From positions 1 through 64,000 of IMG/VR virus record IMGVR_UViG_3300027563_000002: DNA of 64,000 bases; one strand, written 5' to 3'. The position numbers and the translations under genes are program-made. Under the pieces are notes generated by a model, which was not told the DNA's origin, did no database searches, and saw only the letters and a list, made by a program, of their open reading frames with translations. This document shows, in pieces, positions 2,856-17,905 of the stretch (positions are counted from its first letter, which is position 1; each line of letters begins with the position of its first letter). This stretch comes from a virus. Taxonomy: Duplodnaviria; Caudoviricetes.

Positions 2856-3163
2856 GGTTCTTCCTTGGTTGATAATCCGTTTGAATGTCGATCTGTTGTC
2901 TTGTCCAGGTCTTGGAACAGGCGCTTTTCTTGCTGTGTCAATCTATCTTTGTGTGTCTTGCGTGGATTGCCACATAGGTAGCACTGCGAATTACCACAGT
3001 CCATGGCGCGACGTTTATGCAATCTATGTGGTTGTTTTATGTCCGGTCCCGGTGTCAATGCTGGGTGGTGACTGGCCACGGCAATTTTGAGCTGTCTAGC
3101 TATTGCTACATCTTTCTTATGTCGTCGTCGGCTGTTGACAAATCGGGCTAGTTCGTTGCTCAT
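2852..3163 (-). CDS. hypothetical protein with CxxxxCxxC motif
   Basis: 4-bp overlaps with both neighbours. Confidence 0.65.
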   Translation of the reverse strand: MSNELARFVNSRRRHKKDVAIARQLKIAVASHHPALTPGPDIKQPHRLHKRRAMDCGNSQCYLCGNPRKTHKDRLTQQEKRLFQDLDKTTDRHSNGLSTKEEP

Positions 3164-3342
3164 CCACCACGTCCCACTGCTCGTTGCACTGGTCTGCCTG
3201 CTACTATAGGAGTGCTGGGTTTTTTAGATTTGCCACTTTTGCTGGTTTTGGTTTTGGCATCAGGATGAGCAGCGGCCTGTTTCTTGGCCAGTGCGTCTTT
3301 CAATGCATCGGTAAATTTTTTGGGTTCAGTTTGATTGGTCAT
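3160..3342 (-). CDS. small basic hypothetical protein
   Basis: start moved to MTNQTEP at 3342, which follows TTGACA-17-TATACT (3368-3396) and a TAAATA motif. Confidence 0.65.
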   Translation of the reverse strand: MTNQTEPKKFTDALKDALAKKQAAAHPDAKTKTSKSGKSKKPSTPIVAGRPVQRAVGRGG

Positions 3343-3397
3343 ACTGTTATTTACATCCTTAATATACAGTATAACAAAGATCAGCGGCGGTGTCAAG

Positions 3398-3424
3398 ACA
3401 AAAGGCCCGAAGGCCCTTTTGTTT
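3398..3424 (-). terminator. intrinsic terminator after rubrerythrin
   Basis: GGCC-TTCG-GGCC hairpin followed by T tract. Confidence 0.75.
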
Positions 3425-3862
3425 TTACTGTGTTTCTTTATGTGCAGCCAAGGCCTTGGTAAAGCGGTTGGCATGTGAACGTTCTGCTTTGGCCAGGGTC
3501 TCAAACCAATCAGCAATTTCGTCATGACCTTCATCACGGGCTGTTTTGGCCATACCAGGATACATGTCAGTGTATTCATGTGTTTCACCATGAATAGCTG
3601 ATTCCAAAGCTTCGGTAGTGGTTTTGGCACTCATACCTGTACCTGGGTCACCGGAACCACCTTCGATCAGATATTCCATGTGACCATGTGCGTGTCCAGT
3701 TTCACCTTCGGCAGTGCTGCGAAACAAAGCAGCAATGTCGTTGTCACCAGCTACATCGGCCATGTTTGCAAAATACAAGTAACGACGATTGGCCTGGCTT
3801 TCACCAGCAAATGCTTCTTTCAAATTCAATTCGGTTTTAGTTCCTTTTACGGATTGTGTCAT
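3425..3862 (-). CDS. rubrerythrin family protein
   Basis: NLKEAFAGESQANRRY, EGETGHA, ETHEYTDMYP, AERSH di-iron motifs. Confidence 0.95.
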   Translation of the reverse strand: MTQSVKGTKTELNLKEAFAGESQANRRYLYFANMADVAGDNDIAALFRSTAEGETGHAHGHMEYLIEGGSGDPGTGMSAKTTTEALESAIHGETHEYTDMYPGMAKTARDEGHDEIADWFETLAKAERSHANRFTKALAAHKETQ

Positions 3863-3966
3863 GGGTTCCTCCTATTAGTGACATCACTAGTATATAGTAT
3901 TTCTATGTCACTGGTCAAGGCATTTTGCCATTGTATTTTTTAATGTCAATGTTTGAAGTTTTCTAT

Positions 3967-4041
3967 TGGTCGGCCCTGACGGGATCGAACCGCCACCGCT
4001 TGTTTCGAAGACAAGCATGATATCCATTTCACCAAGGGCCG
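3967..4041 (-). tRNA. tRNA-Arg(TCG)
   Basis: cloverleaf, anticodon loop CT-TCG-AA, encoded CCA. Confidence 0.9.
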
Positions 4042-4059
4042 GTGTTTGCTAAGTAACGT

Positions 4060-4761
4060 ATGACTGAACTATTATACACCTTGATTGCAACACATATCAC
4101 CATTGTTGCTGTCACACTGTTCCTGCACAGAAGCCAAGCACATCGCAGCGTACAGTTTCATCCTGCGGTGGCACACTTTTTTAGATTTTGGTTGTGGCTC
4201 ACAACTGGCATGGTCACAAAGCAATGGGTAGCTGTGCATCGCAAGCATCATAGATTCAGTGATGTAGAAGGTGATCCACATAGCCCACATGTGTATGGAA
4301 TCAAAAGAGTCTTTTTCAAAGGAGCAATGCTATATCATGCGGCATCAAAAGATAAAGTCATGGTTGATACATATGGTGTTGGTACTCCTGCTGATTGGAT
4401 TGAGCACAACTTATACAGTGCTCACTCCAGACTTGGCATTGGCATTCTCCTTGTGCTCAACACTTTGATATTTGGCTGGTGGGGTATTGTGATCTGGGCT
4501 ATACAAATGATATGGATACCATTCTGGGCTGCAGGTGTTGTGAATGGTGTGGCACACTGGTGGGGATATCGCAATGGCAAAACCAAAGATCAAAGTCGAA
4601 ATATCATGCCTTGGGGCATTGTGATCGGCGGCGAAGAACTACACAACAATCATCATCTTGATCCTGCCAGTGCTCGACTCAGCAGACGCTGGTGGGAGTT
4701 TGATATTGGATACATGTACATACGCATGCTTGGCGCTTTGCGTTTGGCCACTGTGAAATAA
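4060..4761 (+). CDS. delta-9 type fatty acid desaturase
   Basis: three His boxes HRSQAH, HRKHH, HNNHH; TM helices. Confidence 0.95.
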   Translation: MTELLYTLIATHITIVAVTLFLHRSQAHRSVQFHPAVAHFFRFWLWLTTGMVTKQWVAVHRKHHRFSDVEGDPHSPHVYGIKRVFFKGAMLYHAASKDKVMVDTYGVGTPADWIEHNLYSAHSRLGIGILLVLNTLIFGWWGIVIWAIQMIWIPFWAAGVVNGVAHWWGYRNGKTKDQSRNIMPWGIVIGGEELHNNHHLDPASARLSRRWWEFDIGYMYIRMLGALRLATVK

Positions 4762-4762
4762 C

Positions 4763-4836
4763 TGGTGCTCAAGTACAGAATCGAACTGTCGATTAATCCT
4801 TACCATGGATTCGTTATACCACTTAACTACAAGAGC
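4763..4836 (-). tRNA. tRNA-Thr(GGT)
   Basis: cloverleaf, AT-GGT-AA, CCA. Confidence 0.85.
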
Positions 4837-4840
4837 TGTT

Positions 4841-4915
4841 TGGAGCGGATGACGAGGATCGAACTCGTGACTTAACTTTGGCAAAGTTATGTGTTACCAT
4901 TAGCACCACACCCGC
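4841..4915 (-). tRNA. tRNA-Gly(GCC)
   Basis: cloverleaf, TT-GCC-AA, U73, CCA. Confidence 0.9.
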
Positions 4916-4921
4916 AATATC

Positions 4922-5392
4922 TTACGCCGCCCGCAGACCTTTGAAACGATCTGCGGCATAGCTGGCTGCAAAAGCCTCAGGCTTCACAAAAGGAATCACA
5001 TTGCATGTGCCTTTGATGTAGCCAATGGCCTGTGAAATCACACAGCTGGAACCATGCATTTCGTTGGGGTTGATGTCCAAGTGAACTTCAACATCACGCC
5101 CTTCCAGCACTTCGGCCAATTTCAAATACAGTTCTGAAACTTTGTAAACTTCAGTCATGAGTCTCATGGCCGGCTTTGATGCTTTTTGGTCCCACACACG
5201 TTCACGATGTACTTCGCCAAACAGTTTGCAACCGTTGTTGCCGTTGATGTGAACCACAACAGCCAACACATAGTCTGCCCACCATGCACCGTCAATTTTG
5301 ATGCGTTCTGAGTCGCATCCAAGGTAGATGCGTGTTTCTGGGCTTTGAGCCCGGATGAATTTGGCCACTTGGTCAATATCAAGTTTTTTCAT
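4922..5392 (-). CDS. RNase H-like YkuK (DUF458) family protein
   Basis: IYLGCDS, RLMTEV, EVHLDIN, AFAASYAAD motifs. Confidence 0.85.
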   Translation of the reverse strand: MKKLDIDQVAKFIRAQSPETRIYLGCDSERIKIDGAWWADYVLAVVVHINGNNGCKLFGEVHRERVWDQKASKPAMRLMTEVYKVSELYLKLAEVLEGRDVEVHLDINPNEMHGSSCVISQAIGYIKGTCNVIPFVKPEAFAASYAADRFKGLRAA

Positions 5393-5424
5393 ATGCACTT
5401 TCAAAATTATTTATGTTTGACTAA

Positions 5425-5501
5425 TGGTGCCCCAGAGGAGACTCGAACTCCTAAAATTTGGTTTCTAAGACCAACACGTATACCAATTCCGTCACCGGGG
5501 C
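5425..5501 (-). tRNA. tRNA-Leu(TAG), short variable loop
   Basis: CT-TAG-AA; 77 nt; no long variable arm. Confidence 0.85.
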
Positions 5502-5634
5502 GTTAAATACAATATGATTCCAGTATTTAAAGATCAATCCAAAATAGAAGTACTCTTTGAAATTTTTTCCAATCAACCATATGTGCCACGGGCGTATTGG
5601 ACCAACAATCGAGGATTTGAATTAGACTCATTAT

Positions 5635-5710
5635 TGGTGCCTCCTCCAGGTTCCGACCCTGGTTCCCCGGATTTTCAATCCGGTGCTATGACCACATCAG
5701 CTAAAGAGGC
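5635..5710 (-). tRNA. tRNA-Phe(GAA)
   Basis: TT-GAA-AA; atypical T-loop GTCGGAA. Confidence 0.85.
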
Positions 5711-5715
5711 ATGTT

Positions 5716-5790
5716 TGGTACCTTGTGACGGGATCGAACCGCCGACATTCGCCGTGTAAAGGCGCTACTCTACCGCTGAGTTAACAAGGC
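5716..5790 (-). tRNA. tRNA-Val(TAC)
   Basis: TT-TAC-AC, CCA. Confidence 0.9.
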
Positions 5791-5795
5791 ATATT

Positions 5796-5887
5796 TGGCG
5801 GAAGACGGAGGAGTCGAACCCCATCCCTGTTAAGAGAACCTGGTTTTCAAGGCCAGTCGCAGGACCAACCCCGCTGCATCATCTTCC
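5796..5887 (-). tRNA. tRNA-Ser(TGA), probable 8/4 fold
   Basis: CT-TGA-AA, long variable arm, G73, 8-bp acceptor and 4-bp T stem. Confidence 0.85.
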
Positions 5888-5897
5888 TTGGATTTAA

Positions 5898-6290
5898 TTA
5901 TTGTTGACTCAAACAGTTTGGACACAAAAAATCAACATTGCCCTGAGCAAAATTCTTTTGATTGCCGTCCTGATGAAACAGTTGTAGTTTCAATGGCCTG
6001 CTGTTGTAATCAGCAATGCCGCAACAAACACATTTGTAGTCTCTTTTTCTAACCGGTATACTTTTTACTGCCTGATCAGTGGGAATATCACTGTTGTGTT
6101 TAACGAATGTGCCGTCTGAGTGCTGTTTGAGTCTTTGTTCTACAGTCAGTTCTTTGAAAGTTTTTTGTAACAATCTTGCTGATTCAGATGTAGAACAATG
6201 CAAACTGCAATACCCTGGAGTGGATTTTTCTTGTGATCTGTTGTATGCAGACCGGCAATGTTGACAATAATATTGATTGTATCTATACAT
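5898..6290 (-). CDS. HNH-like Zn-finger endonuclease
   Basis: CxxC, CSxxC, CVCC...HQDGN..N...N...LCPNC. Confidence 0.7.
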   Translation of the reverse strand: MYRYNQYYCQHCRSAYNRSQEKSTPGYCSLHCSTSESARLLQKTFKELTVEQRLKQHSDGTFVKHNSDIPTDQAVKSIPVRKRDYKCVCCGIADYNSRPLKLQLFHQDGNQKNFAQGNVDFLCPNCLSQQ

Positions 6291-6308
6291 GTTTTATTTA
6301 TGTAACAA

Positions 6309-6563
6309 TCAAGATCGGTTCTGCTGAGTCCGTAATCGCATGCCCACCCAGGTACCCAAAAATGCACCTAGTCCTGCAGGGATCAGCAACCATGAATTTG
6401 TTGTGTAGTTGATCACTGCCACACAGGCCATCACAAACACCACAGTGGCCCACAAACTGGCAGCCATCACCTGTTCATGTTGCACTGCTCGCAGGTAGTA
6501 GGTGTAAAAGATATCTGTGAAGAACACAGCAAAAAAGGTCACAACATATTCCCACATGGGCAC
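6309..6563 (-). CDS. small membrane protein
   Basis: three hydrophobic helices. Confidence 0.65.
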   Translation of the reverse strand: MPMWEYVVTFFAVFFTDIFYTYYLRAVQHEQVMAASLWATVVFVMACVAVINYTTNSWLLIPAGLGAFLGTWVGMRLRTQQNRS

Positions 6564-6572
6564 TTTCTATTT

Positions 6573-6650
6573 TGGAGCAACGGGTGAGATTCGAACTCAC
6601 GGTTTTTGGGATTTGCAATCCCATGCGTTGGACCTCTCCGCCACCGTTGC
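6573..6650 (-). tRNA. tRNA-Cys(GCA)
   Basis: TT-GCA-AA, U73, CCA. Confidence 0.9.
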
Positions 6651-6656
6651 ATCGCT

Positions 6657-6730
6657 TGGTCTCCGATGCAAGAATCGAACTTGCGCCACATGGTCCCAAA
6701 CCATGAATGATACCATTTCACCAATCGGAG
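6657..6730 (-). tRNA. tRNA-Pro(TGG)
   Basis: TT-TGG-GA, C1-G72, CCA. Confidence 0.9.
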
Positions 6731-6740
6731 TAAAAAATTA

Positions 6741-6800
6741 GACCGCAAGTGCAAGTGACCTACGCCGGCAGGCTTTGCCTAGCGGGTATTACTTGCGGTC
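6741..6800 (-). ncRNA. putative small structured RNA between tRNAs
   Basis: perfect 10-bp terminal inverted repeat GACCGCAAGT/ACTTGCGGTC. Confidence 0.4.
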
Positions 6801-6804
6801 CAAA

Positions 6805-6878
6805 TGGAGCGGCGTGCGAGAATCGAACTCGCGACTTTAGCTTGGAAGGCTAAGGTAATACCATTTTACGAACGCCGC
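6805..6878 (-). tRNA. tRNA-Gly(TCC)
   Basis: CT-TCC-AA, CCA. Confidence 0.9.
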
Positions 6879-6888
6879 GTATGCAATA

Positions 6889-6917
6889 ATTATACAACAA
6901 ACATCACAGTTTGTCTA
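6889..6917 (-). promoter_or_regulatory. possible internal promoter TAGACA-17-TATAAT
   Basis: hexamers with 17-bp spacer just upstream of tRNA-Gly(TCC). Confidence 0.55.
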
Positions 6918-6924
6918 TTGTGTC

Positions 6925-7001
6925 TGGCAGGAGATATAGGATTCGAACCTATGCGTGTCGGAATCAAAATCCGATGCCTTAACCAACTTGGCGAATCTCC
7001 A
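6925..7001 (-). tRNA. tRNA-Gln(TTG)
   Basis: TT-TTG-AT, G73, CCA. Confidence 0.9.
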
Positions 7002-7008
7002 ACTGAAC

Positions 7009-7083
7009 TGGTAGCCACGGTTGGGAACGATCCAACGGCCCTTCGCTTATCAAGCGAATGCTCTACCACTGAGCTACGCGGCT
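7009..7083 (-). tRNA. tRNA-Ile(GAT)
   Basis: TT-GAT-AA; T-loop ATCGTTC. Confidence 0.88.
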
Positions 7084-7089
7084 AAAATT

Positions 7090-7165
7090 TGGTGGTAATA
7101 GTTGGACTCGAACCAACGGTAGGTTGCGTATGAAGCAACTGCATTAGCCACTATGCTATATTACC
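7090..7165 (-). tRNA. tRNA-Met(CAT), elongator type
   Basis: TT-CAT-AC, paired 1-72; Met vs Ile2 identity is inferred. Confidence 0.8.
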
Positions 7166-7243
7166 ATATAGAAACACACTTTATGCTTTGGGAACGACAT
7201 TGCTGTCGAGCAACCATCAACGGGTACGAAATGTGTTTTTATA
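7166..7243 (-). ncRNA. long-stem inter-tRNA element
   Basis: TATAAAAACACA...TGTGTTTCTATA terminal stem filling the whole spacer. Confidence 0.45.
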
Positions 7244-7317
7244 TGGTAGGGGTGTTCGGGAACGATCCGAATTTTACCGGTTAAAAGCCGGTTACTTCAC
7301 CTTAAAGTTTCACCCCC
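7244..7317 (-). tRNA. tRNA-Lys(TTT)
   Basis: CT-TTT-AA; T-loop ATCGTTC. Confidence 0.85.
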
Positions 7318-7370
7318 ATAGGTTTGCCATTCTTGTCACAGGTCATGACAGATCTCCTTTATAAAAAATT

Positions 7371-7444
7371 TGGTGCCCCACGACAGAATCGAACTGCCAT
7401 CACAGGATTACAAAACCAGTGTAATGCCATTATACTAGTAGGGC
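7371..7444 (-). tRNA. tRNA-Thr(TGT)
   Basis: TT-TGT-AA; two mismatches in anticodon stem. Confidence 0.8.
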
Positions 7445-7449
7445 GTGTT

Positions 7450-7525
7450 TGGCTCCTCAGGCTGGGCACGATCCAGCGACCAACAGATTAACAGTCTGCT
7501 ACTCTACCAACTGAGCTACTGAGGA
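7450..7525 (-). tRNA. tRNA-Asn(GTT)
   Basis: CT-GTT-AA, G73; T-loop ATCGTGC. Confidence 0.9.
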
Positions 7526-7532
7526 ATGAATT

Positions 7533-7691
7533 TTAGTCTTTTGGTTTTTCTCTTCGGACGCTGACTTCTGAACTGAGTTGTGCGTCGATCATCATGCGTT
7601 TGAATTGGTTGCGTCCTTCAGCAGGTCCGCCCATCAAGGCCTTCATGCGCTTGACTGTTTTACTGAGTCTAAATGTTTTGGTAGGTTTCAT
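7533..7691 (-). CDS. 52-aa basic hypothetical protein (not in ORF track)
   Basis: AAGGA SD; MKPTKTFRLSKTVKRMKALMGG...EKPKD*. Confidence 0.6.
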   Translation of the reverse strand: MKPTKTFRLSKTVKRMKALMGGPAEGRNQFKRMMIDAQLSSEVSVRREKPKD

Positions 7692-7706
7692 AAAATTCCT
7701 TATCTT

Positions 7707-7796
7707 TGGCGGAACGTTAGGGAGTCGAACCCTATCAGCGGCTCGTCACCACCGCGGGATTAGCAATCCCGTGCCTTACCATCCGGCCCACGTTCC
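7707..7796 (-). tRNA. tRNA-Ser(GCT)
   Basis: TT-GCT-AA, long variable arm, canonical 7/5. Confidence 0.9.
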
Positions 7797-7818
7797 TTGA
7801 AAATACTTATACCAACTG

Positions 7819-7893
7819 TGGTGGAGGGTAAGGGAATCGAACCCTTAACTCATGCTTGCAAAGCACATGTGTTCCCGTTAGCACCAACCCCCC
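7819..7893 (-). tRNA. tRNA-Ala(TGC)
   Basis: TT-TGC-AA, G3-U70. Confidence 0.9.
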
Positions 7894-7899
7894 ATGTCA

Positions 7900-7973
7900 T
7901 GGCATCCCGGGAGGGACTCGAACCCCCACAAACGGTTTTGGAGACCGCTATGCTGCCATTACACCACCGAGAC
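7900..7973 (-). tRNA. tRNA-Trp(CCA)
   Basis: CT-CCA-AA, G73. Confidence 0.9.
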
Positions 7974-8002
7974 AAATTTCTAACACACTGAAACCAGTGT
8001 GT

Positions 8003-8063
8003 GTATCAAAGCATTCTTCATGGATGAACCCACTTGCCCTAAGGCCCGAGAATGCTTTGATAC
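8003..8063 (-). ncRNA. long-stem element upstream of tRNA array A
   Basis: perfect 15-bp IR GTATCAAAGCATTCT/AGAATGCTTTGATAC. Confidence 0.45.
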
Positions 8064-8169
8064 TCCGGAATTTTACCATCAGCGTTTTCACCACTGACTT
8101 CCCATCCTCCGGGCCGCCCACATTTGTAGTTTAGAGTGATACAGGCTCGCGTTGCCATTGCACTTAATG

Positions 8170-8202
8170 AAAAACCCCGGAGTGTTCAGTTCCGGGGTTC
8201 TT
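8170..8202 (-). terminator. attenuator terminator of tRNA array A
   Basis: AAGAACCCCGGA-9nt-TCCGGGGTTTTT hairpin with U tract. Confidence 0.85.
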
Positions 8203-8226
8203 GTTAGGTATACGAATATAGTCTAA

Positions 8227-8337
8227 TCAGAACCCCGGAGCTCCTGGAATACTGTTGAATGAGCCATTGGCCAACAGCCAGGTTGTTGCCTGGAGCATTG
8301 TGGGCTTGGAAATTGAACAGAATTGTTGTTTCATCAT
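8227..8337 (-). CDS. 36-aa leader peptide A (MMKQQFCSISKPTMLQATTWLLANGSFNSIPGAPGF)
   Basis: ATG 7 nt after a perfect -10; last codons carry an 11-nt complement of the terminator 5' arm. Confidence 0.75.
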   Translation of the reverse strand: MMKQQFCSISKPTMLQATTWLLANGSFNSIPGAPGF

Positions 8338-8344
8338 AGTGCTT

Positions 8345-8373
8345 ATTATAGTTTATTTATGATTTGTTGTCAA
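8345..8373 (-). promoter_or_regulatory. perfect sigma70 promoter TTGACA-17-TATAAT driving leader A and array A
   Basis: exact consensus; spacer also contains TAAATA. Confidence 0.9.
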
Positions 8374-8387
8374 CCTATTGACAAATT

Positions 8388-8462
8388 TGGTTGCGGGGGA
8401 CGGACTCGAACCGCCGATCTCGAGCTTATGAGACTCGTGAGTTGCCACTTCTCCACCCCGCG
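8388..8462 (-). tRNA. initiator tRNA-fMet(CAT)
   Basis: CGCGGGG 5' end, C1xA72 mismatch, CT-CAT-AA. Confidence 0.85.
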
Positions 8463-8527
8463 GCAGAATATTTATTGTAGCAGATATCAAATAGTTGGTC
8501 AAGTCAGTTTGGACAATAAGTATTTGT

Positions 8528-9580
8528 ATGCTAAAGTTAGATCAAATACGCCGGGCACATGTGGAACTGACCACTCGGTGCAATGCTCGCTGCCCCATGT
8601 GTCCCAGAAACTATCGAGGGTTTGAATACAACTCAGGATACCCTGTGACCGAGCTCACTCTCAAAGACTTCAAGCATATTTTTCAACCCAGTTTTGTTGA
8701 GCAGTTGAAACCACCACCTGTGCCACAGGATGGATTCCCTCATCAAACCAACAAATTTTATGGCGTAATTTTCAACGGTAATCTTGGCGATTTTGCCCTG
8801 GCACATGACGGTGTGGAGATTGTAGAATATCTTGTGAGCCACGGCGTGGCAGTAATCATCTCCACCAATGGCAGCATGCGGTCAAAACCATGGTGGCGCC
8901 GTTTGGCATTGCCGGGAGTCACCATTGGATTTGCCTTGGATGGCCTGGCCGACACACACAGTTTGTATAGACAAGATACCAACTGGCAAACAGTGGTTGA
9001 CAATGCTCAGGCATTCATTCAAGCAGGTGGCAGAGCCGTATGGCGATTTGCGCCATTTGATCACAATCGTCATCAAGAGAGTGCCTGTCAACAATTATCA
9101 CAGGAGTTGGGATTTGTAAGATTTGACAACATTTACGATGGCCGAAACACCGGACCAGTGTTCTCACGTGATGGCGAATACAGTCATCAAATTGGCCACG
9201 ATCCTCGTTCAGCACATATTATACCCAGCATACAAGGCCTATTGGAAAATCACAAAACATGGTTTGATCATCGCACAATCAAAATAGCCAAGGATGAACC
9301 AGAGTTACGTTTGGTATGCGAGCACAAACGCCAGGAAGAAATTTACATTGCAGCCGACGGCACAGTGTACCCTTGTTGTTTTTTGGGTTACTATCCCACC
9401 ACAATGACACACCCCGGCAACGAACAATTGAAACAATTGGTTCACGAAAACAATGCACTAGAATATGATCTTGCTCATTGCCTGGACTGGTTTGAACGCA
9501 TAGAAGAAACATGGAAACAGGCCAGCATAGCCGAAGGTAGATTATACGGCTGTGTCAACAATTGCGGAGGTAGATCATGA
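8528..9580 (+). CDS. radical SAM protein with SPASM/twitch-like C-terminus
   Basis: CNARCPMC; DGTVYPCC; start follows a TAAGTA motif. Confidence 0.85.
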
Positions 9581-10443
9581 GTGTGGCAAGAGTGTTATTT
9601 TTAGCACGTTATCGTGTGCCGCATGCTTGCTTTGCACTGCAATGGGACCACAACCTGGTGGGCATTGACCACACAGTGATTGCTACGCCCATGAGTCGAG
9701 AAGAACTAGAACCTGTGTGGGCTCAGTACAACATTGACAGCAGCAATTTTGTCTATGTCAACGACAGTGAGATCTATCAACGCTATCCCGAGGTCAATCA
9801 CTGGGTGTTTGATGGTGACTATCGTGGCTGGTGGCTGCGCCAGCAGGCAATCAAATTGGCATACTTGGACCTGCTGGACGCTGATGTCATGCTCATGCAT
9901 GACGCAGATACATTCATGACCGAACCATACTGTTGTTATGACAATGGCACACTAAACCTATTGAGTTTGTTGAACACCACACAAGGCAGTTACACAGGAG
10001 TGTTCGAAGCCATTACTGGTATGCCACACGCCAGTCCACACTGCTTTGTGACTGAGCTGTGTGCTGTGCGCAAGAGAGATTTTGTAGAGCTACGCAGACA
10101 CATTGAATCACGCTGGCCCCATAAGAAATGGCTGGATGCCATCATTGAAGCAGTGCCGGGCATGCCCACTGTACCTCCCTGGGGCGCAGGTAACATTATC
10201 AAATGGTTCAGCGAATACGAGTTGTTGGGCAACTGGGCTGTGACCCAAGGTGGTGTAACCTATCAAGCGCAACGCAGATTTGAATACAATGAACTGGACC
10301 AATTGGCCAACTTGACTACAGAATACAATGCTGTGTGTGATGCAGTTCCGGATCTGAGTCGCAGTATGCAGTTTGATTGGGCAACGTTGGATGTGCCCAA
10401 TTTTGAACACTACCGGCAGATGGTGCAGAATGTCACATCCTAA
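9577..10443 (+). CDS. DUF6492-like GT-A/nucleotide-sugar transferase-like protein
   Basis: [22 protein letters not shown]; paralog of 12867-13673. Confidence 0.55.
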
Positions 10444-11521
10444 ATTCAGTTACCCAGTCTACAACCCCTGTTGTGATTCCATTGACGTGGCACGTGACTG
10501 GGGTCTGGGCATACTGGATGTCACAACTGATATTGATCTGGTGCTGGCACAACCCTTTCGTGTGGCAGCAGTGCAAGTGTTTTACAATCAACCCTGGATA
10601 TACAGTTACAATCCCAATTTGAAGATTGATCTAAGCCAGTTTGATCTTGTGTTGTTTAGTGACATGGAGTACTATACTCAAGCAGATATTGAAGACTGGA
10701 TCAGCCAACAACAGGTCCAACAATATGTGTTGGCCTTGGGAGGTATCAATCCCACTGACTGTTTGAAACCCAATCAACTGTATCGCCCTTGGTGGATTCG
10801 ACAATTTCAAGAATTTAATGAGTACACAGATACTCAGGCCACTACCAAGCCCTATTTGTTTGATGCCCTGCTTGGAGCACGTAGGCCCCATCGAGACTAT
10901 GTGATGTTGGCTCTGGCACGTGTGGGATTGCTAGAGCAAAGTCTGGTGACCTATCGTGATTGTTTTCCGGGTGCAGTGATAAATGATCAAAACACTTATT
11001 TTCAAAGCCTGTTTCCCAATAAGTTAAACTGGCCCTATGTGAGTCCACAGTTGGATCCGTTGTGGGAAGTGCGCACAGTGATCGACAACACTGTTAGTCT
11101 CGACAGCCCGTTGGAAATATATCGTCGTACTTGGTACAGTATCATTTGTGAAACCATTGGCACCGGGTCAACATTTTTTCTAAGTGAAAAAACTATAAAG
11201 GCCATGTACAACCGCAGAATCTTTGTGATTTTTGGTCCACAAGGCTACCTGCGCCACTTGCGTGAACAGGGCTTTGCCACATTCAGCGGTGTTGTTAATG
11301 AAAGTTATGATGATGAGCCCAGGGATAGCATACGCTTTCAACTGGCCATGCATCAAGTCATGCAGCTGGCCTGGTTTGAGGATCCCACAGAAATGTATGA
11401 CAGCATGAGTACTGCATTGGATCAGAATCAATCACGTTTGCGTGAGCTGGAAGAAAAACGCTCACGTGATCAGCGTGAGCTGTTGCATCATCACATACCC
11501 GGTCATCACTGGTTATGGTAA
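10430..11521 (+). CDS. putative GT-B-like protein (ET...SEKT family)
   Basis: SIICET, LSEKTIK, LREQGFATF...ESYD; paralogs elsewhere in window. Confidence 0.55.
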   Translation: MSHPKFSYPVYNPCCDSIDVARDWGLGILDVTTDIDLVLAQPFRVAAVQVFYNQPWIYSYNPNLKIDLSQFDLVLFSDMEYYTQADIEDWISQQQVQQYVLALGGINPTDCLKPNQLYRPWWIRQFQEFNEYTDTQATTKPYLFDALLGARRPHRDYVMLALARVGLLEQSLVTYRDCFPGAVINDQNTYFQSLFPNKLNWPYVSPQLDPLWEVRTVIDNTVSLDSPLEIYRRTWYSIICETIGTGSTFFLSEKTIKAMYNRRIFVIFGPQGYLRHLREQGFATFSGVVNESYDDEPRDSIRFQLAMHQVMQLAWFEDPTEMYDSMSTALDQNQSRLRELEEKRSRDQRELLHHHIPGHHWLW

Positions 11522-12328
11522 ATCAAAATCTCTTGTGATTCTGTTGTACCACTGCTCGGCAATGAGTTCTTGGCCGCGTGGGCTAGAGTGATATCCAGGG
11601 TCTTCGCCTGTGAACGGATTGTTGCCACAGATGGCCTGTGGATTTTGATCACTGTGGGTCAACAGATACTGGTCGGGAATCATGCCGGGAAATGCCTCAC
11701 GCCATTGAGTGGGATTGCTGGGGTCAAACGGCCACAGCAGGTTGGGCAAGAACAAAAACTTGATGCCATCCAGGTACATTGACATCACACCTTCACGCAT
11801 GATCCACTCGTCTTGTTGTTTTTTCCAAGCATTGTCATAAATGCTGTCAATCCAGGCACGAATGCCACGTTGTGCATCTTTGCTGATTCTAGCCATTCTA
11901 TAGGGATGATCAAAGTTTTCTGCCAGTGTAAAAATAGTTTCACAAATCATGTTGCTGGGCCCTGTGCCATAGTTCACATTCTTTATACCATCTTCTCTGC
12001 AATATCCGTTGCCACGTTTGCAATCTTGCAGGTGCTTTTCCAGTGGCGGATTCTCTCCAGCACTGGGCGCTTGTGTCCAATCGTATGGAGCAGAGTTGGC
12101 AGGGATTTCCATACGATCCCAAAACGTTGCACTTACCACAGCAAAGTCTGGACGTTGTCTGCGTATTTCTTCCATTTGCAAACGGATACCGCCATTGCTG
12201 CAACCTTGACGTGCTAGATTGACCAAGTTCCAGCCCAGTCGTTGGGCCAGTAGTTCACTCCAGGCAGTGCCAGGCATGGTGTTTGACACTGCTGAAAACG
12301 AGCAGCCTGCTACCATTAATTTTTTCAT
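11513..12328 (-). CDS. SGNH/GDSL-like hydrolase or acyltransferase
   Basis: N-terminal GCSFS, NLARQGCSN, C-terminal His. Confidence 0.6.
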   Translation of the reverse strand: MKKLMVAGCSFSAVSNTMPGTAWSELLAQRLGWNLVNLARQGCSNGGIRLQMEEIRRQRPDFAVVSATFWDRMEIPANSAPYDWTQAPSAGENPPLEKHLQDCKRGNGYCREDGIKNVNYGTGPSNMICETIFTLAENFDHPYRMARISKDAQRGIRAWIDSIYDNAWKKQQDEWIMREGVMSMYLDGIKFLFLPNLLWPFDPSNPTQWREAFPGMIPDQYLLTHSDQNPQAICGNNPFTGEDPGYHSSPRGQELIAEQWYNRITRDFDLP

Positions 12329-12870
12329 TGCATTGACTCCAGTATTGATTGCACCTCTTGCGGCACATGGTATTCGTTGCGGTGTCCGTTGATGTGAAAT
12401 GGTTCCACTGTGTTTTTGTGCAGAGGAAATTCATCCAAACTATACACATCTGCGTCCAACGAAAACACACAATTGCCTTGTCCGGGACCTTGAAATGTCA
12501 CTGCATTTTTGAAATGTTGTGTCACACAACGATTTACAAACACATGATGCAGGTGCCCATAATCGCCTGATTGATTGTGTGTGAGCACCAGGTCCTGGTC
12601 AGCAATGGCCGACAATATGGCCTGCTGGGCAGCAGACGCATCAAAACTTATGAATTTGTTTTCGATATCATGCCAGTTGTCCACAAATTCCAAAAATTTA
12701 GTTGCAACTCCTCGACGAGCCCAAAATTGTGCGAATTCGCTGCCACGATGGTCTGTGGCACCGTAGGTAAGATAACAAACAGTCCAATCAAATTTGGGGT
12801 GATGATGCATAAAACTGTAGGCAAATATCACACAATCATCAGGGTGTGCTACCATGACCGTGGCCTTCAT
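12325..12870 (-). CDS. PIG-L/LmbE-like deacetylase
   Basis: VAHPDD and THN..GDYGHLHH motifs. Confidence 0.8.
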   Translation of the reverse strand: MKATVMVAHPDDCVIFAYSFMHHHPKFDWTVCYLTYGATDHRGSEFAQFWARRGVATKFLEFVDNWHDIENKFISFDASAAQQAILSAIADQDLVLTHNQSGDYGHLHHVFVNRCVTQHFKNAVTFQGPGQGNCVFSLDADVYSLDEFPLHKNTVEPFHINGHRNEYHVPQEVQSILESMQ

Positions 12871-13673
12871 TTGATACCTCTTTGAGATAAGAAATTGATA
12901 TATCGAGCACGTTGCTGGTCTGACAGTTGTTGCCAGGCATTTCGATGTATGCTCACTGTGGTGGCCTGACACATCTCAGAAAATTTCCGATCAAATTCTG
13001 CCACCTCACTGTGACATAAATTACAAGGCACAATACTGGTGTGATCAACATCATAAATTTTATCAAATGATCCTTGGGAAAACAACACATATCCTGAATA
13101 CAGAATGAACTCAGTTATCATTCCTTGATCTTGAAACCAGTGTGCAAAATCTTGTTTGGTGCGTGACTGTATTTCTTGAATCATGTCATATACCAATTGA
13201 TTGTTCATCACAAAAGGCACACCACCGGGGCCCAGTTGATTTGATAAATCGATGTCAAACAGTTTGCTGACTAGTTGTTGACTGATTTTAAATACAGGAA
13301 ATATATCCAACAACCCTGTCTGCGGACGATCATGGTATTTTGGCACTGGGTTGACAAACAACGTTTTGGCATCCACGACCATGCTCCAGGTATTTTTGCC
13401 AAGAGCACAGGCCAGCAATTTCAAAAGTTGTTGAGTAAGCCATCCGTTTTCGGCGTAATCGACGGACCAACTGCTACGATGAATTATCTTTACACGATCT
13501 TTGAATTGTCCCCACCAAGCAGGATTCACATCATCGACGGTCATGCGGTCATCGTTGACAATCACAACAATGTCACCAAGGTCCATGTGTTGACAATACA
13601 ATTCCACACTTTGTGCCTGTAATTTCAGTGTGGGTAATTCGTCAAGAAATACCACAGTAACTAGATCCATCAT
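12867..13673 (-). CDS. DUF6492-like protein
   Basis: GWLTQQLLKL, VDAK, TEFILY. Confidence 0.55.
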   Translation of the reverse strand: MMDLVTVVFLDELPTLKLQAQSVELYCQHMDLGDIVVIVNDDRMTVDDVNPAWWGQFKDRVKIIHRSSWSVDYAENGWLTQQLLKLLACALGKNTWSMVVDAKTLFVNPVPKYHDRPQTGLLDIFPVFKISQQLVSKLFDIDLSNQLGPGGVPFVMNNQLVYDMIQEIQSRTKQDFAHWFQDQGMITEFILYSGYVLFSQGSFDKIYDVDHTSIVPCNLCHSEVAEFDRKFSEMCQATTVSIHRNAWQQLSDQQRARYINFLSQRGIK

Positions 13674-13715
13674 GACAATATTTAAGTGTTACAGCTCAGG
13701 CAATAATTTATATCA

Positions 13716-13792
13716 TGGGGTGCATGATGGGATTCGAACCCACGCATATCGGAATCACAATCCGAGGTCTTGACCGCTTGACGACACGCACC
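13716..13792 (-). tRNA. tRNA-His(GTG)
   Basis: TT-GTG-AT, G-1:C73. Confidence 0.9.
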
Positions 13793-13866
13793 ATATTGAA
13801 GCACACTCAACTTTCTGCCCTTGATTCACTACTGCTACTAGGGGCATGTTCTAATGTGCTTCAATA
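13793..13866 (-). ncRNA. long-stem inter-tRNA element
   Basis: perfect IR (CC)ATATTGAAGCACA/TGTGCTTCAATAT(GG). Confidence 0.45.
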
Positions 13867-13943
13867 TGGCGCGACCAGAAGGATTCGAACCTCCCACCCC
13901 TGCGTTCGTAGCACAGTGCTCTATCCAAATGAGCTATGGTCGC
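13867..13943 (-). tRNA. tRNA-Arg(ACG)
   Basis: CT-ACG-AA, CCA. Confidence 0.9.
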
Positions 13944-14727
13944 TGTTCAAATATGATTGAATTCTATTTGCAATAGTTTGTTGCAAGTTTAATTTAATCA
14001 TGCTATTTTCGTCTCCGTTGGCATAATGATATTGTTGAAATAAATCAATACAGTTAATACCATCTTTAAGAATTTTATCAAATACATCTATATTTTCTTG
14101 ATTCATATCACCAAATTTAACTATGGTCCATTTTATAGAAAAATGCGTTAGCACTTTAACAAGTTGTTCATAACTTTTTTTATGTTTTTTGCTGTGCCAG
14201 TCACGAGACTGGTTTGTTTGAAACTGTATCCTATGCAAGAGTTTTTGATGTACTTCAATGGGTGTTATACTGTGATTGATCAAAGATTCAAGATTTTTCT
14301 CAAAAAAGTATCTTTTATTTTCATATCTAAATGAACTTGACACATGTGGAAATGTAAAATCAGTTACTAACACATGATCTGGCATTCCTACTTCTTCAAT
14401 GTGCTGTAAAAGACGTTTGTGATATCCGGTAAAAGTAGCTCCGTTGAATGAACGATTTGTTACTTCGGCGTTCATCAAATTGGGCCAAGCTACTTTTAGC
14501 TCTTCCTCACGAAGATACGTCCACATGGCTGTCTCAATGTCTCGTGAAGATATTGGATCTAAATTATTATTTTTGCGCCTCCGAGCCAGGAACCACATTA
14601 TTGCCTTAGGCACATTTTCAGAATGAAAACGTAAACTCCATGAGCGAGGTAATGAATTACCTAAAACTTCATCGGCTAAACAGTTATTACCGTTACTTTG
14701 ACAATCCCCTAGCACTAGTATTTTCAT
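13921..14727 (-). CDS. AT-rich SGNH-like hypothetical protein inserted in tRNA array B
   Basis: LGDCQS N-terminus; 3' end overlaps tRNA-Arg by 23 nt. Confidence 0.6.
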   Translation of the reverse strand: MKILVLGDCQSNGNNCLADEVLGNSLPRSWSLRFHSENVPKAIMWFLARRRKNNNLDPISSRDIETAMWTYLREEELKVAWPNLMNAEVTNRSFNGATFTGYHKRLLQHIEEVGMPDHVLVTDFTFPHVSSSFRYENKRYFFEKNLESLINHSITPIEVHQKLLHRIQFQTNQSRDWHSKKHKKSYEQLVKVLTHFSIKWTIVKFGDMNQENIDVFDKILKDGINCIDLFQQYHYANGDENSMIKLNLQQTIANRIQSYLNSDHSSFG

Positions 14728-14834
14728 AACTTATGTATATAATTTATCACGTTGATAAAATTTTAGAAAGATTTGTACAATTGTCACTTCACTATTTAAA
14801 CTCCAATTGGGAATATCTAGTGACATCATAAACT

Positions 14835-14910
14835 TGGCGGTCCTAGGGGGTAACGATCCCCACTCTTACGGCGTGACAAGCCGTCGTGCGTCCATGAACA
14901 CTTTAGGACC
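14835..14910 (-). tRNA. tRNA-Asp(GTC)
   Basis: TT-GTC-AC, G73; T-loop ATCGTTA. Confidence 0.88.
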
Positions 14911-14916
14911 AAAAAT

Positions 14917-15002
14917 TGGTGGAGACGGATGGATTCGAACCACCGCGCTTTTTAGGGGCCAGATTTACAGTCTGGTGCAATCAACCACTCTGCCACGTCT
15001 CC
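14917..15002 (-). tRNA. tRNA-Tyr(GTA)
   Basis: CT-GTA-AA, long variable arm. Confidence 0.9.
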
Positions 15003-15010
15003 AAAAAAGA

Positions 15011-15076
15011 GTAAGGGCAAGGTTGCAGAGCCTAGTGTCCCAGACTGGGAGAAGTGCTCAGGCGATATGCCCTTAC
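15011..15076 (-). ncRNA. putative small structured RNA between tRNAs
   Basis: 9-bp IR GTAAGGGCA/TGCCCTTAC plus inner TCCCAG/CTGGGA hairpin. Confidence 0.4.
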
Positions 15077-15081
15077 AAAAA

Positions 15082-15156
15082 TGGTACACGATACGAGAAT
15101 CGAACTCGTCTTTCCGGCGTGAAAGGCCAGCGTCCTAACCGATAGACGAATCGTGC
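15082..15156 (-). tRNA. tRNA-Glu(TTC)
   Basis: CT-TTC-AC, CCA. Confidence 0.9.
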
Positions 15157-15160
15157 AAAT

Positions 15161-15395
15161 TACTATATGAAAATACATTAGGGAAGTTCTTGACACGCAT
15201 CACCAACTTGCATCAAGACCTCATTACGGGCCCAGTTGTTCCGCCGCCTTCCTGGAGTTTGTTATAGTTCTTGCCCTTTGACTCGATGGTGTCTCGTCAT
15301 ACTCTAGAACCCTCCTGCTTCATGGGTATCCGGTTCGCATCAACCTTCGTTCACCCCTAACGGACTAGGTAACCCTAATGTGTTTTCATATAGTA
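15161..15395 (-). ncRNA. about 235-nt putative ncRNA closed by a 23-bp stem
   Basis: 15161-15183 and 15373-15395 are inverted repeats with one mismatch; no ORF-track entry inside. Confidence 0.5.
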
Positions 15396-15488
15396 CCCTA
15401 TAACTAGACAGGGACTATATGACAATCGAAATTTTAACTAACCGGTCAACTAGTCTCGATCGACTGTGCTGTTTTCTAACTAGTCTCT

Positions 15489-15517
15489 AGTATAACACCT
15501 CTACCATTATTGGTCTA
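15489..15517 (-). promoter_or_regulatory. possible secondary promoter TAGACC-17-TATACT
   Basis: just downstream of terminator B. Confidence 0.45.
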
Positions 15518-15521
15518 GCAC

Positions 15522-15554
15522 AAAAAGAAAAACCCGCCTAGGTGGCGGGTTTTT
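15522..15554 (-). terminator. attenuator terminator of tRNA array B
   Basis: AAAAACCCGCC-ACCTA-GGCGGGTTTTTCTTTTT. Confidence 0.85.
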
Positions 15555-15574
15555 GCTTGAGTAGTACTTTTGTA

Positions 15575-15685
15575 TTAGGTACCACTGCTCCCGCTGTGTG
15601 TAGTATAGGCCAGCGCCTCACGACGATAATCATGTAGTTCGTGTGAGGGTATCTCAAAGGACAGTTGGGCGATTTGCTTAATCAT
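15575..15685 (-). CDS. 36-aa leader peptide B (MIKQIAQLSFEIPSHELHDYRREALAYTTHSGSSGT)
   Basis: ATG 5 nt after TATAAT; rich in E/H/D/Y/R; 3' codons can pair with the terminator 5' arm. Confidence 0.72.
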   Translation of the reverse strand: MIKQIAQLSFEIPSHELHDYRREALAYTTHSGSSGT

Positions 15686-15690
15686 AGTGT

Positions 15691-15719
15691 ATTATATATG
15701 ACAGTGAGTCAAAAGTCAA
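15691..15719 (-). promoter_or_regulatory. sigma70 promoter TTGACT-17-TATAAT driving leader B
   Basis: near-consensus. Confidence 0.85.
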
Positions 15720-15745
15720 TGATTTTCTAAACGTCTTTTACCGAT

Positions 15746-15937
15746 TCATGTTCTTCCGGGTGGAAGTTTTGTGGTACCCAGTTGACGTTCAAATGAACCA
15801 GGTCCGGCCAACTCAGGTGGCAAGGGTGGTGGAACATAGCGTTCCTTTGGCGGCTTTGAGCCAAATATGGATTGGTGTCGGTTGGCCAGTTCTTCCTGAC
15901 TGACCACTGACGGACGGGGTCGTGTGCCTTTGCTCAT
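15746..15937 (-). CDS. small hypothetical protein (MSKGTRPRP)
   Basis: GAGGAG SD. Confidence 0.65.
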   Translation of the reverse strand: MSKGTRPRPSVVSQEELANRHQSIFGSKPPKERYVPPPLPPELAGPGSFERQLGTTKLPPGRT

Positions 15938-15970
15938 GGTATCTCCTCAATAGTGTAGTATACACAAAGA

Positions 15971-16154
15971 CAAAAGGCCCGTCAAGGCCTTTTGGGTTGT
16001 TTCTGTTACGAGGTATTTCCTACCCTAGGCAGTGTTTAGGCTGCCAAAGCGAACTGTTCGTCGTTTGCATTTACGTTTTTTGCTTGATTAACGGTCATCG
16101 CCTACCGTGCTGTCCACTCTGGTACTTGTTGCCCTGTCGAAACTATGCAGGCCC
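15971..16154 (-). ncRNA. ssrA: tmRNA coding piece (permuted two-piece tmRNA)
   Basis: 5' GGGCCTG-CATAG-TTTCGAC; tag ANDEQFALAA* at 16068-16036; terminator hairpin 15971-15994. Confidence 0.9.
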
Positions 16155-16166
16155 ATCATAAAAAGT

Positions 16167-16427
16167 CTATTTCGAACAGTAAGTTTCCTTACAAGTCGAA
16201 CAAGAAATATCTAATAGTTTAATATCAAATACTTCCATTTCTAAATGCTTACAACACTTATCTTTACAGTTAGCACAATCTAAATTATCAAGTGCATCAT
16301 AAACACATTTAGTTTCTGAACAAAACATTCCTGTATTTCTATTAGGAAAGTTTCTACAACAACTAGGACGAGTTTCATAGATGCTACAAAGTTCATCAGC
16401 GTTTAAGTAAGGACAGCTTATACTCAT
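16167..16427 (-). CDS. Cys-rich YkgJ-like (Zn/Fe-chelating) protein inside the tmRNA intervening segment
   Basis: CPYL...CSIYETRPSCCRNFP and CxxCxxxCC; AT-rich; GAGG SD. Confidence 0.7.
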   Translation of the reverse strand: MSISCPYLNADELCSIYETRPSCCRNFPNRNTGMFCSETKCVYDALDNLDCANCKDKCCKHLEMEVFDIKLLDISCSTCKETYCSK

Positions 16428-16438
16428 TAGACCTCTTA

Positions 16439-16505
16439 TGGTGGACCTGGGGGGATTCGCACCCCCGTCCAGAACACTTTTCTCATCACTTCATACAGCA
16501 ATAAC
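16439..16505 (-). ncRNA. ssrA: tmRNA acceptor piece
   Basis: GGACGGGGGTGCGAATCCCCCCAGGTCCACCA; pairs with GGGCCTG to give G3-U70; 5' limit approximate. Confidence 0.88.
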
Positions 16506-16518
16506 TCTTATTTACCCT

Positions 16519-16992
16519 TTATTCACTGCTGGGCTCCTCGGCCACACGCCATCCCAGGATGGCCAAATCTGCGGCAATTTGGTCGGTAACATTGCCTTCA
16601 CCAACAAAGTTGCTGTCAGTCTTGTCGCCAATGCCTGAACAGTACCAGTTCATGTAGTCTTCGCCCACGTCTCTCAAATCAGCTACAAGCCCGCCAGCGT
16701 AACGCCAACTGCATGACCAGTAGGCATCTTTTAACACAAGCCAAACATCTTGTTTTTGGAAACTGTTGTTGCACAAGGCAGCATACAAGTTTTGTGCATA
16801 GTCATCACTGCCGCGCACTAGGCTCACAAACCAGTCGGCCTGGTTCATGTCATATTCCATGTTGTTGATTTTGAATTCATCAGACTGCTTACGCTCAGCC
16901 TCCATCTGGGCCCATTGGCCACGAAGGTCATCAAAGAAGTCGTCGTCTGTGCCTTCACTCTCATGCTGTGGTTCTATGGTGATGTTGCTCAT
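16519..16992 (-). CDS. hypothetical phage protein
   Basis: YAQNLYAALCN, WSCSWRYAGG; AAGGA SD. Confidence 0.75.
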   Translation of the reverse strand: MSNITIEPQHESEGTDDDFFDDLRGQWAQMEAERKQSDEFKINNMEYDMNQADWFVSLVRGSDDYAQNLYAALCNNSFQKQDVWLVLKDAYWSCSWRYAGGLVADLRDVGEDYMNWYCSGIGDKTDSNFVGEGNVTDQIAADLAILGWRVAEEPSSE

Positions 16993-17023
16993 GTCAGTTC
17001 CTTTGGTACTTATTGGTACTTAT

Positions 17024-17107
17024 TGGTACGAGTAACCGGAGTCGAACCGGTACGCCAATGGCGGCAGATTTTAAGTCTGCTGGGTCTACCTGTTCCCCCA
17101 TACTCGT
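17024..17107 (-). tRNA. tRNA-Leu(TAA)
   Basis: CT-TAA-AA, variable arm. Confidence 0.9.
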
Positions 17108-17121
17108 ATGCTGTTATTTAC

Positions 17122-17196
17122 TGGTCCGGCGTAGAGGAATCGAACCTCTATAATGACTTTAGAAGAATCATGTCCTATCCGTTGAACGAACGCCAG
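17122..17196 (-). tRNA. tRNA-Arg(TCT)
   Basis: CT-TCT-AA. Confidence 0.88.
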
Positions 17197-17202
17197 ATTG
17201 TT

Positions 17203-17279
17203 TGGTGGGCCGTCGGTGATTCGAACACCGCACCAAAGGATTATGAGTCCTCTGCTCTAACCGAATGAGCTAACGGCCC
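17203..17279 (-). tRNA. tRNA-Ile2(CAT, lysidine type)
   Basis: GGGCC...TAGCTCA..GGTTAGAGCA..GACTCATAATC resembles bacterial ileX. Confidence 0.8.
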
Positions 17280-17303
17280 TACATGTGTATTGTAACAGGA
17301 ATT

Positions 17304-17684
17304 TTATTTATAGTCAACAGTGCCGTCTGCCAGGTGGTCCTGTTTGATTTCTTTCACAGCATGTCCCAAAATGGATGCTACAGAATTTTTGTAGGCAATG
17401 CGTTGATTGTTGAAATCTCTGATGGCAATGGCTCGTCGCCCAATCTCCTGGAGACTCAACATTTGTTCTACACCGCTTTTGAGTTGCCATTCCAGGTCCC
17501 AAATGGCATGGTGAATATCAGTCATGGCCTGAATCACTTGATCCAATTCTGAGCTTTGGGACAGTTGTTGATACTTGTCCTCGTACCAATCAAGTTCAAC
17601 TTGATTTGCACCTTGGGTCCTGGCGTGTTTTACTCTGGCAATGCAGAGTCTATCGATCAGTTCTAATACTGGTAAGAATTCCAT
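17304..17684 (-). CDS. hypothetical helical protein
   Basis: ELIDRLCI..., WDLE; TTGACA-17-TATAAT at 17714-17742. Confidence 0.7.
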   Translation of the reverse strand: MEFLPVLELIDRLCIARVKHARTQGANQVELDWYEDKYQQLSQSSELDQVIQAMTDIHHAIWDLEWQLKSGVEQMLSLQEIGRRAIAIRDFNNQRIAYKNSVASILGHAVKEIKQDHLADGTVDYK

Positions 17685-17753
17685 AAGGGGCCTTTCTTGT
17701 GTTATGGATTCTAATTATATAATATTGCGAAGTGTTTGTCAACACTTGCTAGA

Positions 17754-17891: not shown

Positions 17892-17905
17892 GTATATATA
17901 ACGCT

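Follow-up and report, generated by a model that had tools for sequence, protein, structure and literature searches.

The main tRNA operon of an uncultured giant freshwater (jumbo) phage is headed by an element that, judging from its sequence and from folding models, is probably a ribosome-dependent (leader-peptide) transcription attenuator. A consensus promoter, a short leader ORF and two mutually exclusive RNA helices, one of them an apparent intrinsic terminator, stand in front of a conserved noncoding RNA and a long tRNA array. The leader is written in the amino acids that the array serves.

The DNA belongs to IMG/VR virus record IMGVR_UViG_3300027563_000002 (Duplodnaviria; Caudoviricetes), a 110-kb record with an estimated completeness of 32%. 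Its first 64 kb, here called the window, were analyzed and contain 27 tRNA genes according to ARAGORN. The attenuator and the genes behind it lie on the minus strand of the window, to whose numbering all coordinates refer. No cultured relatives were found; a phage database matched only the tRNAs and a distant radical-SAM gene of a Campylobacter phage. Relatives were reached through the radical-SAM gene neighboring the attenuator, and a few of them carry the same module directly upstream of it. In a second step, IMG/VR was scanned with the terminator and its conserved loop, yielding more than 119 loci, in which the terminator occurs in two contexts: at the end of a capsid-like gene or after a promoter and a short ORF. 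A set of 59 non-identical IMG/VR leaders of the promoter and short-ORF type was used for the leader analyses. Relatives bearing terminal repeats have genomes of ~340 kb, each typically with one attenuator copy; one of five records has two.

The earlier note on this sequence had described a perfect TTGACA-17-TATAAT promoter ahead of the leader of this element, hereafter attenuator A, and its coordinates check on the minus strand. The sigma-70-type site (8345-8373) consists of TTGACA at 8373-8368, a 17-nt spacer and TATAAT at 8350-8345 and scores 12/12, one of two such scores within 15.5 kb. Promoters of at least 9/12 precede the leader in 58 of the 59 relatives, with a 17-nt spacer every time and ending 6-11 nt 5' of the ATG; in 43 of these 58, the gap between the -10 element and the ATG is 6-7 nt. 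In the window, the leader ORF of 36 codons plus TGA (8227-8337, stop at 8229-8227) begins with an ATG at 8337, 7 nt after the -10 element. With so short a distance, the transcript probably starts at or beside the AUG and, as there is no space for a Shine-Dalgarno site, the mRNA must carry little or no untranslated 5' leader. A-rich second codons accompany this conserved leaderless start.

Adjoining the leader on its upstream side is a tRNA-Met gene (8388-8462, minus strand) with a C1:A72 mismatch, a feature typical of bacterial initiator tRNA. This gene has its own promoter-like site, TTGACC-17-TACAAT (8474-8502, minus strand), and no terminator was detected between that site (8502-8474) and the leader. 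Transcripts starting there would carry the ORF without a 5'-terminal AUG, possibly as an untranslated copy, and may thus bypass the control.

Leader lengths among the 59 relatives range from 26 to 48 codons, with a median of 38. The leader frame is open in all 59, the remaining two frames hit stops in 59 and 48, and dN/dS lies between 0.33 and 0.48 in four subfamilies. The universally open frame and these ratios together indicate that the ORF is maintained as a coding sequence, and it is probably translated. The leader peptides of attenuator A and of attenuator B, a second element described below, have no significant Pfam or PHROG family. Trp is the sole invariant residue, located at position 17-25 from the N terminus. 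We considered it as a TnaC- or SecM-like arrest residue and rejected this role; nascent-peptide arrest would require constant spacing between a conserved residue and the arrest or stop site, while the Trp is separated from the last codon by 10 to 27 residues and keeps its position more constantly relative to the N terminus.

The end of the leader and the DNA behind it spell three segments. Region 1 (8223-8239), the 5' arm of the antiterminator, comprises the core TCCGGGGTTCT (8239-8229), which ends on the T of the TGA stop, and TTAG (8226-8223), so that the stop at 8229-8227 falls inside it. Region 2 (8191-8207), the shared arm, comprises CTAA (8207-8204) and AGAACCCCGGA (8201-8191). Region 3, TCCGGGGTTTTT (8181-8170), is complementary to region 2 and forms, together with the loop ACUGAACAC (8190-8182), the distal part of the terminator (8170-8190), with the 3' arm starting at 8181 and five U residues at 8174-8170. 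Region 2 can, thus, pair with region 1 or with region 3. That the last leader codons are an exact 11-nt complement of the terminator 5' arm (8239-8229 versus 8201-8191), as claimed from first inspection, holds on the minus strand, and the noted extension of the pairing through TTAG and CTAA joins 8226-8223 to 8207-8204. The antiterminator is capped by an apical hairpin, UAUA-UUCG-UAUA (8209-8220), in both the minimum-energy and the centroid structures from RNAfold. When given the leader, RNAfold selects the hairpin of regions 1 and 2 (z = -3.5), and none of 200 shuffled sequences folds as well. The terminator has a 10-bp G+C-rich stem followed by UUUUU, with a hairpin energy of -18.1 kcal/mol; its helix is 98.9% paired across 71 distinct relatives, and it can be expected to work as a transcription stop.

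Comparison with the relatives supports the antiterminator as a maintained helix. In an alignment-free swap test on 20 representatives sharing <75% identity, in which upstream segments were combined with region 2 and shared ancestry was left uncorrected, a leader's own arm gave -20.1 kcal/mol on average versus -14.4 kcal/mol for the arms of other leaders, and none of 10000 permutations performed as well. Unanchored MAFFT alignment of the leader 3' parts followed by RNAalifold returned no pairs, with rows lying one column out of register. A covariance model built on the antiterminator re-aligned 73 matches; in this alignment, likewise uncorrected for ancestry, 144 cells are changed on both sides of the antiterminator compared to 53 in shuffles (0 of 500 reaching the observed value), and the co-variation score is 0.31 versus at most 0.14 with slid partners. 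At one position of region 2 the base is either U or C, and its counterparts in region 1 and in region 3 both match it. The arrangement is, thus, conserved and co-varying in dozens of diverged phages, and in the 64-kb window the 9-mer TCCGGGGTT occurs exactly three times, each time as one of the arms. These observations refute a chance direct repeat of the terminator arm within a chance ORF, in favor of which we can name nothing beyond the shortness of the elements.

Loci at which the terminator follows a capsid-like gene provided a control. In most of them, an upstream partner is missing and the segment before the terminator folds weakly; when the full sequence is folded, nearly all form the terminator. 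The same terminator, with the conserved loop ACUAAAAAC, ends a capsid-like gene (C terminus ..FQLDSCTSVGFKLTT) at loci L082, L086, L088, L101 and others, so that these related phages employ one sequence type of terminator at several locations.

These controls also bear on whether the ORF is an ordinary small gene, with a peptide acting in trans and an unregulated terminator behind it that allows constant partial read-through. Such a gene would account for a dN/dS moderately below 1 and for the retention of the Trp and of local motifs such as NSIPG through synonymous changes, and some leader peptides do act in trans (PMC7298713). We nevertheless regard it as quite unlikely, as a plain terminator needs no competing arm, and the terminators of capsid-like genes mostly have none, while the competing helix of the leaders co-varies and their stop codon is held at 19-29 nt from the shared arm in 59 of 59 cases. 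The peptide itself drifts strongly from one subfamily to the next, with a composition that follows the tRNA array.

A further possibility is that a trans-acting factor, whether a phage or host protein, an RNA or, in the manner of T-boxes, uncharged tRNA, sets the antiterminator independently of translation by recognizing the hairpin of regions 1 and 2 or the terminator loop. Conservation of the loop, ACUnnACAC, is indeed unusually high, and the loop is seen again at other terminators of this group. For the antiterminator hairpin, the apical sequence is not conserved among the relatives, and neither a T-box nor any other Rfam leader family matched attenuator A or any other part of window positions 3000-18500 at E values up to 1. 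As such a factor would leave the conserved ORF, the position of its stop codon and the composition match all unexplained, we consider it very unlikely.

Under the preferred reading, that of a leader-peptide attenuator, the position of the ribosome decides between the helices. In every one of the 59 leaders, 19-29 nt separate the end of the stop codon from the region 2 core downstream. The stop falls within region 1 in 43 of them, including the window; in the other 16, region 1 lies 13-29 nt upstream of the stop, with a small hairpin in between. At this spacing, a terminating ribosome would always cover or sterically block region 1 and leave region 2 free. The codon for the invariant Trp precedes region 1 by at least 21 nt in 57 of 59 leaders. 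Folding constrained by ribosome footprints, which the earlier note had put forward as a check, showed the window leader changing cleanly from one helix to the other between its codons 29 and 31. The predicted probability of the antiterminator is 1.0 without a ribosome or with the A site on any codon up to 29 and 0.8 at codon 30; from codon 31 to the stop, the probability of the terminator is 1.0. The putative sensing zone would, hence, extend from codon 2 to about codon 30 (8248-8334), with an antiterminator probability of at least 0.8 up to codon 30, and it contains the invariant Trp codon (8280-8278).

In the relatives, before the 3' arm of the terminator exists, region 2 is already paired upstream with a probability above 0.9 in 58 of 59, and with a ribosome at the stop the terminator probability is above 0.9 in 50 of 59. 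When no ribosome is present, full equilibrium favors the antiterminator in 35 and the terminator in 24 of the 59, which means that kinetics must play a part in some of them. The earlier proposal that a ribosome at the stop codon masks the antiterminator and causes termination, with upstream stalling or lack of translation giving read-through, is, thus, supported by comparative and in silico evidence: all that it predicts at the level of sequence holds in the window and in the 59 diverged relatives.

The window contains a second element with a promoter, a 36-codon ORF and a terminator, attenuator B (15522-15719, minus strand), which shares the CACT-ATGAT start. The tRNAs that follow it serve five amino acids, Glu, Tyr, Asp, Arg and His, and each of these occurs in its leader. 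Footprint-constrained folding gave no support for an antiterminator in attenuator B, where the terminator forms at every ribosome position; the method, therefore, does not by default produce a clean switch such as that of attenuator A.

The amino acid composition of leader A suggests what might be sensed. It uses 14 amino acids, one to four times each and without tandem runs, which would imply low sensitivity to any single tRNA. The 18 downstream tRNAs serve 16 amino acids, and all 36 residues belong to this set, a match with a chance probability of about 5e-4 to 3e-3 given the protein composition of the phage itself. Asp, Glu, His and Tyr, which make up 19.7% of the phage's proteins, are absent from leader A, and their tRNAs sit in a separate array (13716-15156). 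Array tRNAs read 32 of the 36 individual codons, but not UCA (twice) and UCC for Ser or UUG for Leu. Among 11 relatives with at least 15 tRNAs downstream, 185 of 209 amino acid cells agree between zone and array in presence or absence, in a comparison that is uncorrected for ancestry; permuting arrays among loci gave a mean of 172.8 agreeing cells, and one of 20000 permutations reached 185. His and Tyr enter the zone only where the array contains their tRNAs, except at a locus with a contig-truncated array and at one Tyr-mismatch locus. Asp and Glu are confined to the tail after the zone if their tRNAs are missing from the array. A tRNA-Trp gene is present in every long array examined, and the invariance of the leader Trp follows if the leader holds at least one codon per array tRNA.

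The same ribosome-dependent switch could, in principle, respond primarily to leaderless initiation or to transcription-translation coupling, with the amino acid match being secondary; the signal would then be free 70S ribosomes, initiator tRNA or general ribosome availability or inhibition. Consistent with this, the leaderless start is conserved in 58 of 59 relatives, an initiator-like tRNA-Met lies directly upstream, the window leader folds wholly as antiterminator without a ribosome and single codons per amino acid make poor sensors. It would leave unexplained, however, why the zone avoids exactly the amino acids missing from the array and why His and Tyr (mostly also Arg) enter it alongside their own tRNAs. 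We, therefore, think it rather unlikely that initiation or coupling is the principal signal.

Behind the terminator, the minus strand from 8170 to 7973 contains no promoter-like site of at least 9/12, in keeping with the remark in the earlier note that no promoter separates the terminator from tRNA-Trp. The first element there is not tRNA-Trp itself but a conserved structured noncoding RNA of ~190 nt (7974-8169), which would be transcribed first upon read-through. Dozens of relatives have this RNA, in each case preceding the tRNA array, and 15 of its 17 predicted pairs show compensatory changes. Recognizable parts are a hairpin with an invariant AACGMG loop, a single-stranded CAAAYGGGCGG motif, further co-varying helices and a 15-bp stem at 8003-8063. 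No Rfam family matched this RNA even at E values up to 10. It resembles what we take to be the RNase P RNA motif GGGCGG..GGAGGA..GAAGUC, but its identification as a reduced RNase P RNA was rejected because Rfam is silent and the supposed P4 partner belongs to a local, co-changing hairpin.

The RNA is followed by nine tRNA genes identified by ARAGORN and, according to the promoter scan, preceded by no promoter-like site (6925-7973; Trp, Ala, Ser, Asn, Thr, Lys, Met, Ile and Gln) and by the rest of the array (3967-6878; Gly, Pro, Cys, Val, Phe, Leu, Gly, Thr and Arg), in which protein genes are interspersed. The order in the relatives is attenuator, an optional small gene, the ~190-nt RNA and same-strand tRNAs. 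The small gene, found in many relatives (for example, L078:3591-3761, minus strand) and absent from the window, has ~55 codons, a Shine-Dalgarno site and the consensus start M-x-DYTKLNDRIVKQA; it has no significant Pfam or PHROG family. Between the two halves of the array, a promoter-like site, TAGACA-17-TATAAT (11/12; 6889-6917, minus strand), ends ~10 nt before tRNA-Gly(UCC), and this site (6917-6889) may be an internal promoter that feeds the second half independently. Other features of the region include an RNase H-like protein gene (PF04308, E = 1.3e-15; 4925-5404, minus strand) embedded in the array on the same strand and a weak tRNA-Sec-like match (RF01852; 5800-5887, minus strand) adjoining tRNA-Val, with 36.6 bits against a gathering score of 47 and no ARAGORN call. 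A circularly permuted tmRNA (Rfam RF04321, 129 bits; 16036-16500, minus strand) lies in the same tRNA-rich region.

We propose the following sequence of events. Host RNA polymerase would initiate at the consensus promoter and produce a leaderless mRNA. On emerging, region 2 would pair with region 1, that is, with the last codons and the stop, to form the antiterminator; the terminator would be blocked and the polymerase would continue into the ~190-nt RNA and the tRNA genes. A ribosome translating the 36 codons in step with the polymerase would sit between codon 31 and the stop when region 3 is made and, by covering region 1, would let region 2 pair with region 3, ending transcription at about 8170. 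If the ribosome were absent, late or slowed within codons 2 to ~29, read-through would result. Since the zone is spelled only in amino acids of the array tRNAs, the element probably acts as a feedback gauge in which slow decoding leads to more phage tRNA, with decoding speed as the likely signal. A decoding lag could come from decay of the host tRNA pool or from anti-phage tRNA nucleases. For a wider version of this model, we see the case as evenly balanced: jumbo phages may use such elements as general gauges of translation capacity, each with a leaderless test peptide composed of the amino acids that the phage's own tRNAs serve and a default-on switch that raises the ~190-nt RNA together with the tRNA array when decoding falls behind transcription.

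Why phages carry tRNA genes is under active study; the genes have been suggested to compensate for codon usage, to replace a host tRNA pool that decays or to evade defenses that cleave tRNAs (PMC10264068, PMC11555353, PMC11464382). If the proposed mechanism is correct, the phage measures decoding and adjusts its tRNA supply accordingly. To our knowledge, almost nothing has been established about how phages regulate their own tRNA genes. In the full-text literature searched, we found no description of leader-peptide attenuation of tRNA genes, and the mechanism would, thus, represent homeostatic feedback control of tRNA genes by attenuation, undescribed for any tRNA operon, and extend classical attenuation from amino acid biosynthesis to tRNA genes. 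It would also draw attention to the unclassified, conserved ~190-nt RNA as a co-regulated partner of the tRNAs. With a consensus sigma-70 promoter and an intrinsic terminator on a DNA piece of ~210 bp, the element should suit standard coupled transcription-translation systems.

Several known systems share parts of this design. T-box riboswitches use a terminator/antiterminator leader to link tRNA status to genes of the translation apparatus, as proposed for the phage element; they recognize uncharged tRNA by direct binding and contain no leader ORF. The same logic is found in the Anabaena trn operon, a supernumerary tRNA array that is induced by translational stress (PMC8421152; PMC10272220) and, as proposed for the phage array, goes up when translation is impaired. 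Its mechanism differs, being promoter repression by the protein TrcR via direct repeats, and the 2021 paper on the operon makes no mention of attenuation, leader peptides or terminators. Ribosome-mediated attenuators that respond to antibiotics, for example, that of mef/mel (PMC4335068), likewise rely on a stalled ribosome in a short leader ORF that favors the antiterminator and on downstream genes that relieve a translation problem. They sense drug-bound ribosomes at specific peptide motifs, none of which is conserved in the phage leaders, and control resistance proteins. Leaderless leader peptides occur in attenuators of Deinococcus, Corynebacterium and mycobacteria (PMC4007540; PMC3890552; bioRxiv 10.1101/834739), where, as here, a regulatory small ORF at the 5' end of the transcript dispenses with a Shine-Dalgarno site. 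Those elements serve cellular operons responsive to amino acids or cysteine and have leaders rich in one amino acid, in contrast to the tRNA operon, mixed leader and proteobacterial-consensus promoter type of the phage attenuator.

The most direct comparison is with the enterobacterial leader-peptide attenuators of amino acid operons, such as trpL, hisL, leuL, thrL, pheL and the ilv leaders. Both have a short leader ORF, an intrinsic terminator and an antiterminator that uses the terminator's 5' arm, and the ribosome position, which decides the outcome in those operons, is predicted to do so in the phage; the greatest likeness is to the multivalent thr and ilv leaders, which read several amino acids. 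The phage element differs in its leaderless mRNA and in lacking tandem regulatory codons, its 14 amino acids being used one to four times. It also has three segments, without the anti-antiterminator or pause hairpin of the four-segment trp type, and would consequently be default-on, with absence of translation predicting read-through rather than termination. Finally, it would control phage tRNA genes and a noncoding RNA rather than biosynthetic enzymes.
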